The position numbers were made by a program, and so were the translations under genes. Positions 1,123 to 30,566 of a stretch of 36,695 bases of DNA are shown in pieces. Position 1 is the first letter of the stretch, and every line of letters begins with the position of its first letter. This DNA is from a virus (taxonomy: Duplodnaviria; Heunggongvirae; Uroviricota; Caudoviricetes): the IMG/VR virus record IMGVR_UViG_2531839665_000016, positions 1-36,695 of that record; one strand, written 5' to 3'. The notes below the pieces were generated by a model. The model ran no database searches and had not been told where the DNA came from. It worked only from the letters and a program-made list of their open reading frames with translations.

Positions 1123-2171
1123 GAAATCGTCCCCAGTACCGCCAGTTCGTTTTTCGCAATGGAGATATTGTCCACCGGTGCAAGCAACTGATGGCTGTAT
1201 TCCCCGTTCGCACCGGAAATCGCCTCACTGATACGCGATACCTTCAGTTCTCCCTGCGGATAACCATCACGCAGCAGGAACGAACGCAACTCCGCGGTAA
1301 TGGCAGCCCGTATTTCTGGTGTGTCCGGCGTCACGCGGATATGAAAATCCACCGTATGTGCCACCGGCCTGAATACATACAAATCAGAGCCTGCCACCGG
1401 GGCCAGTGGCCCGATATGTTGTCTTGCTGCCGTTTCCGTTGATTCTTCCGGAATGGGATTAATCAGGTCACTGCTGGCAATCATCACACCGACAGTTCCC
1501 GTTCCCATCCAGTGACGGTATGTCCATGCGCGGGTAATGCCGGGCACTTCTTTAGCCCAAACGACATAGTCCCCGTCAGCCCCGCCCTGCGGCGTCCAGT
1601 AATACCGCTCAATGACGCGGGCGCGCCACGTTTCCAGCTCTTCAGTATCAAATCCGCCTGTAATGGTGTCAGCCACACCGGAAGACGGCAGACCATTCAC
1701 CGGCGTGACCAGGATTAATGCCGTACCGTCGTCAGCGTTACCGACCGCACCTGCACTTGAGCAGGCGATCGGCACGCGCAGGACACCACCGGAGCTGGTT
1801 GCATCGTCAGTTGTCGTGTACTGAACCAGGTCATCGCGCTGAATAACACTCCCGGCGGTCACCTTCAGGCCATCGCTGACACCTTCCCAGCGCATATACC
1901 CGCTGGCAGACGTGGCCCCCTTGCGCGGACACCGTTTCATCGCAGCATGTCGCGCCAGCCAGGACTCATCGCACAGGTCAGGCAGCATGTTCATTGCCAG
2001 ATAATCGATGTAACCGTAAACCGTATGCAGCGCCGCCGCATACACCTTTGCCCGCACGTCTTCATCCATGCGCCGGAGCGTGTCGCTGACGTCCAGCCTG
2101 GCGAATAAATCGTTACGGAGCATACTGATATTTTCTGCCAGCGTCGGGCGTTGAAATTCACTGTCCGCCAT
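1113..2171 (-). CDS. Baseplate J-like protein (Mu gp47-like)
   Basis: 352 aa; size and position between gp46-like and gp48-like genes; baseplate J family resemblance. Confidence 0.7.
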
Positions 2172-27630: not shown

Positions 27631-27969
27631 CTATTTCCCTGAATTTACGACGAAACTGTTCGAGCGGACTGAAGCATTCATGCTCATAACCTTCGCGGAG
27701 GTAGATAACCCGTTGTGTTTCCGGTTCCCAACGAATGACTCTGACGGGCACTCCGTAGTGATCTTTGAACCAGCGGTTAACTTGTCGCAAAGGACTGCCT
27801 CCTTCTGCCGGTTGAAATCACCCACAGCCCACTCTGCAAAGCTGTGGGTTACAATTTCCCTGTCACCTGGTACATTCACTGCATAGCAATACTCCACCTT
27901 CGCTTTTCCACCCGGAACCGGAAGCGCAATCAGTTGCGAGCGACGGTAGTGTGTTGTTAAACTGTTCAT
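27631..27969 (-). CDS. Hypothetical early protein
   Basis: 112 aa ORF co-oriented with the early-right operon, 4 nt overlap with the upstream gene; no family recognised. Confidence 0.35.
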
Positions 27970-28529
27970 GCGTTAGTTTCTCCACAGTCACGACACGCCA
28001 CGGCGCCCGGAGCTGCACACTCGCGGGCGTCACTACTTTCTGAAACGCAAAAGATTTTGTAGACCAGTGCTGCATGCTCCTGCAGCTTCGAAATTGAGAG
28101 GTACAGCTCATCGTTAATTGCTGTCTTCTCATGCGGTTCCACTACACTGTCTTCAATTGCTGAACGAATCTGTTTTGAATAACTGCCGATCTGTTCAATG
28201 ACCTCCAGCAGGCGTTGGTTGATATCGGCATTGTCCACATCCTCGACGTCAGGAAGAGACACAAAGACGCCATTTGCAGACTGCGCCACAGCATCAGCAA
28301 TGAAGTGAGTGCCACCAGCACGCTGCAAAACCATTGCCCATCCCAGCGGGAAAATCTGATCGCCATCTGCACGAAGGCGGTTGAATAAAGCGTTTTCTGT
28401 TACATCGAGCCAGTCAGCCGCTTCAGCGTAACCACCCGGCAACGCCGCGATAGTTTTTCTGACAGCTTTCACGTACCACTCAGGCTGTTTTTCTATTTTC
28501 CAGTGATGCTTACCCACGATTAGCCTCAT
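27966..28529 (-). CDS. Hypothetical early protein at the cII position (possibly YdaT/cII-like)
   Basis: 187 aa; immediately downstream of the cro-like gene; Cys-rich C-terminus; family assignment uncertain. Confidence 0.4.
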
Positions 28530-28560
28530 CGTTCTGTGGTTAAAAATTGAAAGTGTTCTG

Positions 28561-28761
28561 CTAATCTTTCGGATAGATATCCGGTCTTAAGTCAGATTTC
28601 GTAATTGCACCTGATGTGTATTGCTCAAGTTTTTTAGCCAGCACAAAACTGGCTTTTTTATAGCCATTGAAAACCAGCCGTAAGTAGCCAGGTGTTGAGC
28701 CAACTTTTCCGGCCAACTCGCCCTGCTGTTCTTTGGTTAAAGAGTCCCAATACGCTTTCAT
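28561..28761 (-). CDS. Cro-like repressor (YdaS-like HTH)
   Basis: 66 aa from MKAYWDSLTKEQQ...LRPDIYPKD; GGAGGT Shine-Dalgarno about 10 nt upstream of ATG 28761; divergent from cI. Confidence 0.7.
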   Translation of the reverse strand: MKAYWDSLTKEQQGELAGKVGSTPGYLRLVFNGYKKASFVLAKKLEQYTSGAITKSDLRPDIYPKD

Positions 28762-28764
28762 ACA

Positions 28765-28836
28765 ATATGTACCTCCGGTGTACATATTACATGATTGAAA
28801 TGAACCTTCAAGATACTTGCACCTTAACGGTACAAG
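28765..28836. promoter_or_regulatory. cI-cro intergenic operator/promoter region with two palindromes (ATATGTAC-N7-GTACATAT at 28765-28787; CTTGCACC-N5-GGTACAAG at 28816-28836)
   Basis: Inverted repeats read directly from the sequence between divergent cro-like and cI genes. Confidence 0.55.
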
Positions 28837-28851
28837 GGTTTTAATTTCGTT

Positions 28852-29526
28852 ATGAAAACAATCCATGACATCCGGCGGTCTAACGCCAGAAAACTGAGAG
28901 ATGGTGTTGGCGGGAATTCTTCCTTTGCCACTATGATTGATCGCGAGCCAACCCAGACCAGCAGGTTTATGGGAGATGGTGCTACTAAAAATATCGGTGA
29001 CAGCATGGCACGACACATCGAAAAATGTTTCGACCTGCCTGTAGGATGGCTCGATCAAGAACACCAGACAACGAACATCACAAAAAAACCTGATGTTTCA
29101 ATCACTAATAAACAAATCACATTAGTCCCTGTCATATCATGGGTACAGGCCGGAGCATGGAAAGAAGTTGGATATTCTGAGGTTGATTTGAGCACAGCAG
29201 AAACGTATCCCTGCCCTGTACCCTGTGGGGAAATGACTTATATCTTGCGGGTGATAGGTGATTCAATGATTGATGAGTACCGCCCGGGAGACATGATTTT
29301 TGTCGATCCTGAAGTACCTGCCTGCCACGGTGACGACGTTATTGCATTGATGCACGATACAGGTGAAACCACCTTCAAAAGGTTGATAGAAGATGGGACA
29401 CAGCGTTATCTCAAAGCGTTAAACCCAAACTGGCCTGAGCCTTACATTAAGATCAACGGTAATTGCTCTATAATTGGTACTGTGATTTTCTCAGGAAAAC
29501 CAAGAAGATACAAAATCAAAGCCTAA
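28852..29526 (+). CDS. CI-type prophage repressor (HTH + S24 LexA-like autopeptidase domain)
   Basis: 224 aa; C-terminal GDSM (Ser nucleophile) and TFKRL (Lys) consistent with the S24 Ser-Lys dyad; divergent from cro. Confidence 0.8.
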   Translation: MKTIHDIRRSNARKLRDGVGGNSSFATMIDREPTQTSRFMGDGATKNIGDSMARHIEKCFDLPVGWLDQEHQTTNITKKPDVSITNKQITLVPVISWVQAGAWKEVGYSEVDLSTAETYPCPVPCGEMTYILRVIGDSMIDEYRPGDMIFVDPEVPACHGDDVIALMHDTGETTFKRLIEDGTQRYLKALNPNWPEPYIKINGNCSIIGTVIFSGKPRRYKIKA

Positions 29527-29540
29527 TCAATGTTTATGAA

Positions 29541-29561
29541 CCTGCTTCGGCAGGTTTTTTT
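29541..29561 (+). terminator. Intrinsic terminator downstream of cI
   Basis: Hairpin CCTGC-TTCG-GCAGG followed by TTTTTTT. Confidence 0.6.
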
Positions 29562-29565
29562 ATAC

Positions 29566-29598
29566 TTGACAATGTACCTTTGAGATACATAATGTACC
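29566..29598 (+). promoter_or_regulatory. pL-like early-left promoter with putative operator half-sites
   Basis: TTGACA (29566-29571), 16-nt spacer, CATAAT (29588-29593); AATGTACC direct repeat (29571-29578 and 29591-29598) shares the GTAC core of the cI-cro palindrome. Confidence 0.5.
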
Positions 29599-29699
29599 CA
29601 AGAGAAACAACAAACAGGCAGGACGCCCACGAAGTAGCCGCCTGGGGCATATGAAGTCCAGGATGATTCGTTAGCGGATGATTTCAGTGGAGAGAATAG

Positions 29700-30008
29700 A
29701 TGAATGAGCAGGATTTGAAGCATGTGATCGCATTGTTGCTGGAAGACGCTAAACGTTTGCAGCAGATAGAGCCAAATGCAGGCACTGAGGCCCGTATTTT
29801 GTTAGCAAAACAGGCATTAAAGACTTGCGAGGCGCAAGACCCTGATCGAACCAAGTTCATGAATTTCATGGCTAACACGATCACCCCACTGCCATGCAAT
29901 GGAGAGAGGGTGAGCCGTGTTTATCACGACACAATGGTTAAGGCATTAAGAATCGAGCTTGATGGGCTTAGGCGTAAGATCGTGATGAACAAAATCGTTG
30001 CCAACTAA
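29700..30008 (+). CDS. Hypothetical early-left protein
   Basis: 102 aa; GGAGAG Shine-Dalgarno 6 nt upstream; first gene after the pL-like promoter. Confidence 0.5.
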   Translation: MNEQDLKHVIALLLEDAKRLQQIEPNAGTEARILLAKQALKTCEAQDPDRTKFMNFMANTITPLPCNGERVSRVYHDTMVKALRIELDGLRRKIVMNKIVAN

Positions 30009-30287
30009 GGAAGCAGACGGAAGTAAGCATGCGCTTTGTTCAAATTTGCAGACAAATATATTTGCGTCAACACCAGCACTGTTAGCAATGGAAAAAGTTT
30101 GATCAAGGATTTGTTGGCAGTTCATTGTGCTTTTGAGGATATATCCCTCTGGAATCAGTCTGCAGCAGCTATCGTCAGACTCTTTGATTGTTTTCTGGTA
30201 CAGAAAGTTAAGCATTAATTCTTCAAATTTTTTGGTCTGTTCGGCTGTTGCTTCAAACAGACGAACGTGAACATAAAACTGGTTCAT
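29946..30287 (-). CDS. Hypothetical protein encoded antisense within the early-left operon
   Basis: 113 aa from MNQFYV...; AAGGAAA Shine-Dalgarno 4-6 nt upstream of ATG 30287; AT-rich; 3' end overlaps the preceding plus-strand gene by about 60 nt. Confidence 0.4.
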   Translation of the reverse strand: MNQFYVHVRLFEATAEQTKKFEELMLNFLYQKTIKESDDSCCRLIPEGYILKSTMNCQQILDQTFSIANSAGVDANIFVCKFEQSACLLPSASLVGNDFVHHDLTPKPIKLDS

Positions 30288-30566
30288 TAGGTTTCCTTGC
30301 TGGCTGTGTGAGAACTCCAGCATACCACCGAGCCTGAAGTGGTGAAAAGACAGGCAATAGTTTCATTGCTGTGTGTAGTCCTGGCGGTACCAGTTTGTAC
30401 CCTTGCTTCCGGCTGGTACCGCTCTTTTTACAAAACAGAGAAGAGCATCACCGGACGACGGGCTCATAACCCAATCCATCCGGGCGGCTGCCACCGCAGG
30501 TGTTCTTCTCTGTTTTGTGGAGAAACCAACCGACCTTGCAGGGTCGATATGATGAGGAGCAGCAAA

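Follow-up and report, generated by a model that had tools for sequence, protein, structure and literature searches.

A lambda-style immunity switch of the SfV/SfIV/e14 type with a predicted 17-bp operator, and a conserved RNA element in its early-left leader

The DNA analyzed here, referred to as the window, is a 36,695-nucleotide stretch of a Caudoviricetes virus (IMG/VR record IMGVR_UViG_2531839665_000016, positions 1 to 36,695). Its immunity region comprises the following three genes:

27966–28529, minus strand: CII-like regulator of the YmfL/CP76 family, encoded second in the cro operon (Pfam Phage_CP76, 5.8e-13; NCBIfam YmfL, 5.6e-49; PHROG CII-like activator)
28561–28761, minus strand: cro-like gene encoding a 66-aa HTH protein (weak HTH_3/YdaS Pfam matches; PHROG transcriptional repressor, 7e-14)
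28852–29526, plus strand: cI repressor gene, 224 aa, with a phage-repressor DNA-binding domain and an S24 autopeptidase domain (Peptidase_S24, E = 1.5e-26)

The divergent cro-like and cI genes described in the initial annotation were confirmed to encode a Cro-type HTH protein and a CI-type repressor, and the short regulatory gap of 90 bp between them is typical of a lambdoid CI/Cro switch. The cro gene is annotated as such in SfV, whose protein differs by one residue. The S24 autopeptidase domain that had been assigned to CI was borne out by the Peptidase_S24 match and by the presence of a lambda-type Ala-Gly site with a Ser/Lys dyad: in an alignment to the C-terminal domain of lambda CI, the cleavage site Ala100-Gly101 and the residues Ser138 and Lys176 were kept within VQAG, GDSM, and TFKR, respectively. 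The N-terminal domain of CI was not detected by the Pfam HTH models; in a profile comparison with PDB sequences, it matched SPC32H Rep (5D50, 2.9e-10) and a phage CI (7NKV, 1.8e-4). A single-sequence AlphaFold model of CI had a pLDDT of 31, which is too low for use. The protein is identical at all 224 residues to that of phage Ayreon and of one E. coli prophage locus (L008), and at 223 of 224 to that of SfV.

The region is a lambda-style lysis/lysogeny switch of the SfV/SfIV/e14 immunity type, which is ordinary and already known. Its DNA is 95–99% identical to that of SfV, SfIV, PhiR29, Stx2c phages, cdtI, Ayreon, and the K-12 element e14 (cohE/ymfK and croE/ymfT), with 98–99% for SfV, SfIV, PhiR29, and e14, and the module was found in 1324 of 5426 complete E. 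coli genomes. CI, Cro, the operators, and pL are all near-identical to those of this type; compared with SfV, SfIV, and e14, the terminator, pL, and the operators are the same, CI is identical or one residue off, and Cro is one residue off, while OR1, OR3, and OL1 deviate slightly from SfV at their centers. The cI and cro genes of SfIV have been reported to be identical to those of SfV. The GenBank record of SfV contains a "putative operator region" equivalent to 28767–28835 of the window, exactly from OR1 to OR3. The homology to many phages stops at approximately 29609–29623, just beyond OL2, which suggests that the operators and the promoter move with the repressor as one module. The homology to SfV ends at approximately 29675, and the first early-left gene thus differs from that of SfV.

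For comparison, we used 19 sequences from about 15 genera with CI proteins 73–100% identical, and 21 distinct sequences for the pL side. In the Edwardsiella phage EPP-1 (69% DNA identity), the layout was kept and the central operator bases were changed. The following promoters and candidate operators were assigned in the gap between cro and cI:

28768–28784, no strand assigned: OR1, TGTACCTCCGGTGTACA, candidate operator, a perfect 17-mer with zero mismatches
28784–28811, minus strand: PR, inferred cro promoter with −35 TTGAAG (28811..28806), a 16-nt spacer, and −10 TAATAT (28789..28784)
28801–28817, no strand assigned: OR2, TGAACCTTCAAGATACT, weak candidate operator centered on the PR −35, with the cI start codon about 43 bp downstream
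28817–28845, plus strand: PRM, inferred cI promoter with −35 TTGCAC, a 17-nt spacer, and −10 TTTAAT, ending 6 nt short of the cI ATG
28818–28834, no strand assigned: OR3, TGCACCTTAACGGTACA, candidate operator with one mismatch, over the PRM −35 and spacer

Two palindromes had been noted initially, ATATGTAC-N7-GTACATAT and CTTGCACC-N5-GGTACAAG, and both were present, at 28765–28787 and 28816–28836, inside the 90-bp gap. Their separation into an N7 and an N5 kind was not upheld, as both are the same 17-mer, TGTACC-N5-GGTACA. Both are credible as operators between cro and cI; their number was underestimated, a third putative site (OR2) having been missed.

OR1 obtained a weight-matrix score of 21.8, which was higher than that of every shuffle, and its half-sites carried 1.83 bits among the 19 sequences. 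It takes in the final base of the PR −10, the proposed start point, and the Shine-Dalgarno sequence of cro; because its center doubles as this Shine-Dalgarno sequence, conservation there is uninformative on the operator. A repeat finder extended the OR1 palindrome to 15-nt arms (28758–28772 and 28780–28794) that were 87% complementary. In OR3, the half-sites carried 1.93 bits and the center 0.48 bits. The palindrome of OR3 is imperfect in the window (7 of 8) and is a perfect CTTGTACC in every relative. For OR2, the TGAACC half-site was invariant in all 19 sequences, and the half-sites carried 1.81 bits, compared with 1.05 bits for the other intergenic columns; in the window, the site departs from the 17-mer at three positions and scores 8.6, within the chance range. 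It is its invariance and its position that argue for OR2 as a putative operator. The centers of OR1 and OR2 are 33 bp apart, and those of OR2 and OR3 are 17 bp apart; the latter two sites abut, which leaves their simultaneous occupancy and a lambda-like activation of PRM uncertain.

PR and PRM each agree with the consensus at 8 of 12 positions, which is below the threshold of the promoter scan, so that neither was listed (pL was) and both depend on manual reading and conservation, with start points that are guesses. In the relatives, the TTG of the PR −35 and the A2 and T6 of its −10 were held at equal spacing, and nearly all of them had a TnTAAT-like hexamer 6 nt ahead of the cI ATG (7 nt in two loci). 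No Shine-Dalgarno sequence is present ahead of cI, and a −10 element ending 6 nt before the ATG would imply a leaderless cI mRNA.

A single base of OR3, T28820C, distinguished the window from every other sequence examined. The resulting TGCACC allele was found in none of the IMG/VR contigs, compared with at least 120 for TGTACC, and no complete E. coli genome was 100% identical across the OR3 stretch. Owing to this unique change, cI could be autoregulated differently in this prophage.

Downstream of cI, the following elements were identified:

29538–29564, plus strand: intrinsic terminator of the cI transcript, an 8-bp stem with a 4-nt loop (29538–29557) and a T run
29566–29593, plus strand: pL, TTGACA, 16-nt spacer, CATAAT, 11 of 12 consensus positions
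29573–29589, no strand assigned: OL1, TGTACCTTTGAGATACA, candidate operator filling the pL spacer with a 2-nt overlap with the −10
29593–29609, no strand assigned: OL2, TGTACCCAAGAGAAACA, candidate operator over the pL start point, matrix score 14.5

The terminator is annotated in SfV and Ayreon and was present in the relatives. The near-consensus promoter that had been proposed after it was verified: its TTGACA and CATAAT were invariant in the 21 distinct sequences, and it is annotated in Ayreon. The AATGTACC direct repeat, found as described at 29571 and 29591, was better read as the left half-sites of OL1 and OL2, two candidate operators in tandem, than as a repeat flanking the promoter; the repeat finder extended its copies to 19-nt units 20 bp apart. 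No position in the window scored higher with the matrix than OL1 (22.7), which had half-sites of 1.92 bits and a center of 0.54 bits. In OL2, the left half carried 1.88 bits and the right half 0.92 bits, and two relatives (L012 and L015) have a truncated site. The order of terminator, TTGACA, OL1, CATAAT, and OL2 was identical in all relatives.

The frequency and conservation of the motif were evaluated over the whole window. Allowing one mismatch, TGTAC-N7-GTACA occurs only at 28768, 28818, and 29573 in 36.7 kb, where 0.62 occurrences are expected. Counted over the entire window, exact TGTACC/GGTACA hexamers show no enrichment (21 found versus 17.8 expected); the 104 nt of the operator stretches hold four exact copies versus 0.05 expected. 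A weight matrix trained solely on relatives from outside E. coli placed OL1, OR1, OR3, and OL2 as its top four positions in the window. Across the 19 sequences, the half-sites carried 1.8–1.9 bits and the centers were free to vary, compared with 1.05 bits for the other intergenic columns. The stretch PTQ(T/I/V)SR of CI was kept in every relative that retained TGTACC sites. An extra operator within cI, at 29217, was rejected, as its matrix score of 9.0 is at the chance level.

As in lambdoid phages, several copies of one palindrome lie over the divergent promoters and over a separate early-left promoter, five sites in all. We consider it very probable, as part of the switch model as a whole, that the operator is the 17-mer TGTACC-N5-GGTACA, with three sites in the cro/cI gap and two at pL. 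The earlier suggestion that one repressor controls both early promoters is in line with the recurrence of the motif in the cro/cI gap and at the pL-type promoter after the cI terminator, to which the same CI would bind.

The observed sites, their conservation pattern, their placement against consensus-like promoter elements, and the CI motifs point with the same high confidence to a bistable immunity switch of lambda style and SfV/SfIV/e14 type; operator occupancy by CI, its cooperativity and order, PRM activation, and the use of the same sites by Cro are what we infer from them. Dimers of CI, and presumably of Cro, would recognize the 17-bp operator. In the lysogen, CI bound at OR1 and OR2, which lie on the same helix face given their distance of 33 bp, would shut PR, and CI at OR2 would probably stimulate the weak PRM to yield the leaderless cI mRNA. 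At high CI levels, OR3 would be filled and CI would limit its own synthesis. pL would be shut by CI at OL1 in the promoter spacer, aided by the half-conserved OL2 20 bp away. Upon DNA damage, active RecA would promote self-cleavage of CI at Ala100-Gly101, and both early promoters would open. SOS-inducibility of the CI module is supported by its autocleavage motifs and by the damage induction of near-identical modules: UV induction yielded the SfIV isolate, and AZT induced e14 genes, among them ymfK, ymfT, and ymfL (PMC11228462).

Several features are shared with lambda: cI and cro diverge on either side of three 17-bp operators, an operator precedes a leaderless cI start by approximately 42–43 bp, a terminator and then OL/pL in the same orientation follow cI, with an operator in the pL spacer, and CI has the Ala-Gly, Ser, and Lys autocleavage motifs. 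The differences are that the operator sequence is unrelated, that OR1 lies over the PR start point here and in the PR spacer in lambda, that the OR centers are spaced by 33 and 17 bp rather than by 24 and 23 bp, that only two OL sites exist, the second half-conserved, and that the rex and N genes are absent. The half-site cores are also those of HK022, whose OL and OR regions read TGTAC/TGAAC ... GTACA/GTTCA in repeats that we take to be the footprinted HK022 operators; its cores are 5 bp apart (15-mer), whereas those in the window are 7 bp apart (17-mer). The N-terminal domain of the HK022 repressor has no detectable sequence similarity to that of the CI studied here, and only the S24 domains align.

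The weakest of the five sites invites another reading, in which only two operators lie between cro and cI and the TGAACC...GGTACT block is conserved for promoter architecture or for another protein such as the CII-like YmfL. The score of OR2 in the window, from a site with three mismatches, is below the average shuffle maximum of 9.1, and the abutment with OR3 is an unusual arrangement. We nevertheless regard this reading as unlikely, because the invariant TGAACC sits in the PR spacer beside the −35, outside the promoter hexamers, and because OR2 in most relatives is TGAACC-N5-GGTACT, with two mismatches in the exact register of the 17-mer. TGAAC also serves as a half-site in HK022 operators. 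In lambda, OR2 occupies the corresponding position, centered on the PR −35 and at about −43 from PRM. The long OR1 palindrome could, in turn, act mainly as an RNA hairpin hiding the ribosome-binding site of cro rather than as a protein site, given that it encloses the GGAGG of cro and that its arms reach beyond the 17-mer. As PR is predicted to start within the palindrome, only the downstream arm would be transcribed; the 17-mer recurs at OR3 and OL1, neither of which has a ribosome-binding site, and the part of OR1 conserved in relatives consists of the TGTACC/GTACA cores. The hairpin reading is accordingly scarcely plausible.

Direct repression of the promoters by host LexA through weak LexA boxes, which would give a damage response without CI cleavage, appears very improbable to us. 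Its basis is the dependence of e14 gene induction by AZT on LexA cleavage, which was ascribed to weak LexA boxes (PMC11228462). CTGT-N8-ACAG with at most one mismatch was absent from 28700–29700, the operators have a spacing of TGT-N11-ACA as opposed to the TGT-N8-ACA of the LexA box, and the cleavage site and catalytic dyad of CI itself are intact. In lexA(Ind-) hosts, the lack of RecA amplification makes lambda induction defective, so that a dependence on LexA cleavage need not mean LexA boxes.

With respect to the switch itself, the analysis adds little, as the comparison confirms what the SfV annotation suggested. The gain is a concrete operator model, in which a 17-mer occurs at three OR and two OL sites. 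It applies to an immunity type that roughly one in four complete E. coli genomes carries and that includes the K-12 element e14, whose damage induction was recently ascribed to LexA boxes.

Beyond the switch originally noted, the first approximately 60 nt of the pL transcript contained an unannotated structured RNA:

29611–29670, plus strand: three-helix RNA in the pL leader, with P1 29611–29614/29667–29670, P2 29617–29619/29625–29627, and P3 29639–29645/29658–29665, loop GGCAUAUGAAGU

The window sequence matched the covariance model with 91.5 bits. In this RNA, a closing helix encloses two hairpins, and the loops and the junction are invariant; among 75 distinct sequences, 96.8% of the cells were paired, compared with 79.4% after shuffling, and nine pairs had compensatory changes. 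Single-sequence folding did not recover this covariation-supported structure (z approximately −0.5 to −0.6). The element was found in 51 phage records of differing immunity types. Despite unrelated repressors and operators, it is shared by temperate phages of Escherichia, Shigella, Salmonella, Klebsiella, Yersinia, Pectobacterium, Pantoea, and Aeromonas. A cmscan of 28400–30400 against Rfam 15 with E values up to 1 returned only a spurious lncRNA match on the opposite strand, and a literal search for the leader sequence in a collection of papers gave no match.

Three other identities of the leader element were rejected. PreS/LPR1, an early-left sRNA of lambda, maps to tL2a between ea10 and ral; a conserved mini-ORF is contradicted by early stops and by a first AUG that is ACG in several members; and a minus-strand terminator does not agree with the G·U pairs, which fit the plus strand only. 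The element resembles HK022 put in that each opens the pL transcript of a phage lacking N and is a structured RNA of approximately 60–70 nt; put is formed by two long stems in a V shape, whereas the leader RNA has a closing helix and two hairpins. By nhmmer and by the covariance model with filters off, nothing was found at the HK022 putL and putR sites, and the best matches in the HK022 loci were elsewhere (E at least 0.38). The 36.7-kb window holds one copy of the leader RNA and no putR-like second copy. Neither similarity nor copy number thus places it in the HK022 put family.

The leader RNA may be more interesting than the switch. A strong hairpin terminator is located further down the early-left operon. 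Tentatively, and with more doubt than confidence, we propose by analogy that the RNA represents an undescribed class and a mobile module of its own, which could act in cis on RNA polymerase in a manner similar to put, although unrelated to it, and allow early-left transcription to read through terminators without an N protein. If the element is a protein-independent antiterminator or another cis element, it would explain the long early-left operons in N-less phages of the SfV, ST64B, and e14 kind. It would then be a second RNA class for a mechanism known only from HK022 put.

Sequence comparison places the region in a phage family that is already known, as its immunity module. Shigella phages SfIV and SfV, E. 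coli phages PhiR29/PhiR49, Stx2c-converting phages, cdtI, and Ayreon share 95–99% identity with it. In E. coli K-12, its match is ymfK/ymfT of prophage e14, and among complete E. coli genomes, 1324 out of 5426 carry the module. The CI repressor is identical in Ayreon and differs at one residue in SfV. The remainder of the window is ~97% identical to SfI/SfII/SfIV-type myoviruses. In many phages, the homology ends at ~29609–29623, immediately beyond the second early-left operator (OL2), which indicates that the repressor, operators, and early-left promoter (pL) travel as one module. The following features were located:

28561-28761, minus strand: cro-like HTH gene, 66 aa, weak HTH hits
next minus-strand gene beyond the cro-like gene: CII-like gene of the YmfL/CP76 protein family
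28768-28784, 28801-28817, and 28818-28834: operators OR1, OR2, and OR3
28852-29526, plus strand: cI gene, 224 aa, Peptidase_S24 domain
29538-29557, downstream of cI: cI terminator, stem-loop and T run
29566-29593, downstream of the cI terminator: pL, TTGACA-16-CATAAT, 11/12 consensus
29573-29589 and 29593-29609: operators OL1 and OL2; the repeated AATGTACC, downstream of the cI terminator
~30383-30430, plus strand: likely terminator hairpin, 13-bp stem followed by UCUUUUU (z = −4.4)

The initial annotation read the switch correctly: both of its palindromes lie within the 90-bp gap between the divergent cro-like and cI genes, and the near-consensus promoter past the cI terminator and the S24 domain of CI were recovered. 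The switch itself is ordinary and was annotated before; the SfV record gives a 'putative operator region' corresponding to 28767-28835 as well as the cI terminator, and the Ayreon record a terminator and promoter downstream of cI. We refine it to one 17-mer consensus with three OR sites and reread the AATGTACC direct repeat, which is present, as tandem OL1 and OL2. As a side observation, Cro residue 48 (28618-28620) is Tyr here and Cys in SfV, Ayreon, and an e14-like E. coli prophage, in which the C-terminal end of Cro is also different.

The two GTAC palindromes are both real, but when aligned by their centres they do not represent two spacings and read as one site type, TGTACC-N5-GGTACA. The core TGTAC-N7-GTACA, with at most one mismatch, occurs in the 36.7 kb only at 28768, 28818, and 29573 (0.62 expected), and allowing two mismatches added 29593. 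The operator hexamer shows no window-wide enrichment, yet four copies fall within 104 nt (0.05 expected). We compared 19 loci from other genera, with CI 73–100% identical, and the Edwardsiella phage EPP-1. Their cro–cI intergenic alignment is nearly gap-free; the invariant columns are TGTACC, TACA, TGAACC, TTG-ACC, and G-TAC, whereas the right-hand site varies freely at its five central positions. Half-sites carry 1.8–1.9 bits, compared with 0.48 for the OR3 centre and 1.05 for the remaining intergenic columns. After cI, all relatives keep the order terminator, TTGACA, one base, 17-mer, TAA, and second TGTACC, with 1.92 bits in the OL1 half-sites and 0.54 in its centre; the left half of OL2 holds 1.88 bits and the right half only 0.92. 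A weight matrix trained solely on non-E. coli relatives ranked OL1 (22.7), OR1 (21.8), OR3 (15.5), and OL2 (14.5) as the top four sites of the whole window, where the best score in shuffled sequences averaged 9.1 with a maximum of 18.3.

A third block, TGAACC-N5-G(G/A)nACT at 28801-28817 (OR2), abuts the right-hand site and was overlooked by the initial annotation. With three mismatches, it scores 8.6 in the window, which is at chance level, and its standing thus rests on its position and its invariance (TGAACC is unchanged in 19 of 19 sequences). A further 17-mer, TGTACCCTGTGGGGAAA, at 29217-29233 within the cI coding sequence has two mismatches to the operator core and also scores at chance level (9.0).

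The left half-site of OR3 is TGCACC in the window and TGTACC in every relative. This allele, which differs at 28820, was found in no IMG/VR contig, compared with at least 120 for the usual allele; no complete E. coli genome was 100% identical over 28740-28900, and the allele was absent from all of them. The base affected is invariant in the half-site and also forms part of the putative −35 of the cI promoter (PRM); either regulatory variation or a sequencing error could account for the change.

The putative cro promoter (PR) is TTGAAG-16-TAATAT (28811 to 28784, minus strand), which would start the cro mRNA near 28777. OR1 would then span the PR −10 edge to about +10, taking in the cro GGAGG, and OR2 would be centred on the PR −35. 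The putative PRM is TTGCAC-17-TTTAAT (28817-28845, plus strand), ending 6 nt before the cI ATG. As cI has no Shine-Dalgarno sequence and the distance from the TnTAAT hexamer to its ATG is kept in nearly all relatives, a leaderless cI mRNA is implied. OR2 would accordingly be centred ~43 bp upstream of the cI start, with OR3 over the PRM −35 and spacer. PR and PRM each match 8/12 of the consensus, and neither was listed by the promoter scan. The centre-to-centre distances are 33 bp (OR1–OR2), 17 bp (OR2–OR3), and 20 bp (OL1–OL2).

In phage lambda, cI and cro diverge around three OR sites, cI is leaderless, and a terminator and OL/pL follow it. The layout here is the same, with a site in an activating position upstream of a putatively leaderless cI and with OL/pL in the same direction after the cI terminator. 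It departs from lambda in operator sequence, in spacings, and in how many OL sites there are. The OL/OR regions of HK022 (820-900 and 1620-1700, minus strand, of locus L156) hold the same TG(T/A)AC...GT(A/T)CA cores 2 bp closer together, and the HK022 CI N-terminal domain has no detectable similarity to that of the window CI.

The C-terminal domain of CI aligns to lambda CI and retains VQAG (Ala100-Gly101), GDSM (Ser138), and TFKR (Lys176). Pfam found no HTH in residues 1–92; a profile of the N-terminal domain built from relatives matched two proteins, SPC32H Rep in its DNA-binding domain (5D50, 2.9e-10) and a phage CI (7NKV, 1.8e-4). SfIV, whose cI and cro were reported to be identical to those of SfV, was isolated after UV irradiation. 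The e14 genes, including ymfK, ymfT, and ymfL, are AZT-induced, which was credited to weak LexA boxes (PMC11228462). No LexA box with at most one mismatch was found in 28700-29700. A perfect LexA-box core, CTGT-N8-ACAG (CTGTTGCTTCAAACAG), lies at 30245-30260 inside a minus-strand ORF (29946-30284); it may mean nothing, as chance alone would give ~0.6 such sites in the window.

Immediately beyond OL2, at the start of the pL transcript, a segment of ~60 nt (29611-29670, plus strand), referred to here as the leader RNA, is 80–100% conserved in 51 phage records. Among these are phages with unrelated repressors, namely SfII, ST64B, mEp237, SPN3UB, ZF40, YeP1-3, AH07, phages of Klebsiella and Citrobacter, and one of Aeromonas. 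It was likewise found at loci L003-L006, L152-L154, and more than 100 in IMG/VR. In every case, it is unannotated, with the repressor operon on one side and the first early-left gene on the other; in five of seven phages with unrelated repressors, a TTGACA-type promoter ends 20–31 nt upstream of its core. A wider scan yielded 103 distinct versions, and the covariance-model alignment comprised 75 distinct sequences. In this alignment, the three-helix structure was 96.8% paired compared with 79.4% when shuffled (none of 500 shuffles reached 96.8%), and pairing was at most 40% with the partners slid. Compensatory changes were observed in three of the four outer-helix pairs (CGAA/UUCG, CACC/GGUG, and CAUC/GAUG) and in five pairs of the main hairpin, which has at least 12 stem variants. 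The G.U pairs are consistent with the plus strand alone, that is, the pL transcript, and the loops and junction (AGGAC, CACGAAGUAGC, and GGCAUAYGAA) are nearly invariant. At 29612, the window has an A.C mismatch in the outer helix (CAAA with UUCG). CGAA is the form in most members, and E. coli prophages commonly carry either allele.

The leader RNA belongs to no Rfam family, and its sequence string had no match in the literature searched. HK022 put showed no detectable relation to it, lambda PreS/LPR1 is a different element, and the window holds a single copy. The hairpin at ~30383-30430, missed by the terminator scan because of its long loop, separates the first pL gene from the downstream DUF2303, phosphatase, and integrase genes on the same strand, and it is likely a terminator that pL transcripts must pass. 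As SfII, SfV, and SfIV were reported to have no N, cII, or cIII homologues (SfIV paper), this hairpin makes a cis-acting antitermination role plausible for the leader RNA, although hypothetical. Where OL2 meets the leader RNA, three loci carry recombination scars, and the leader RNA seems to be a marker of a mosaic boundary. In L012 (2242-2260), leader hairpin P3 is joined directly to the left half of OL2; in L015 (2252-2262), OL2 is shortened; and in L238 (978-1045), a complete leader RNA is followed 670 nt downstream by a 3' half-copy.
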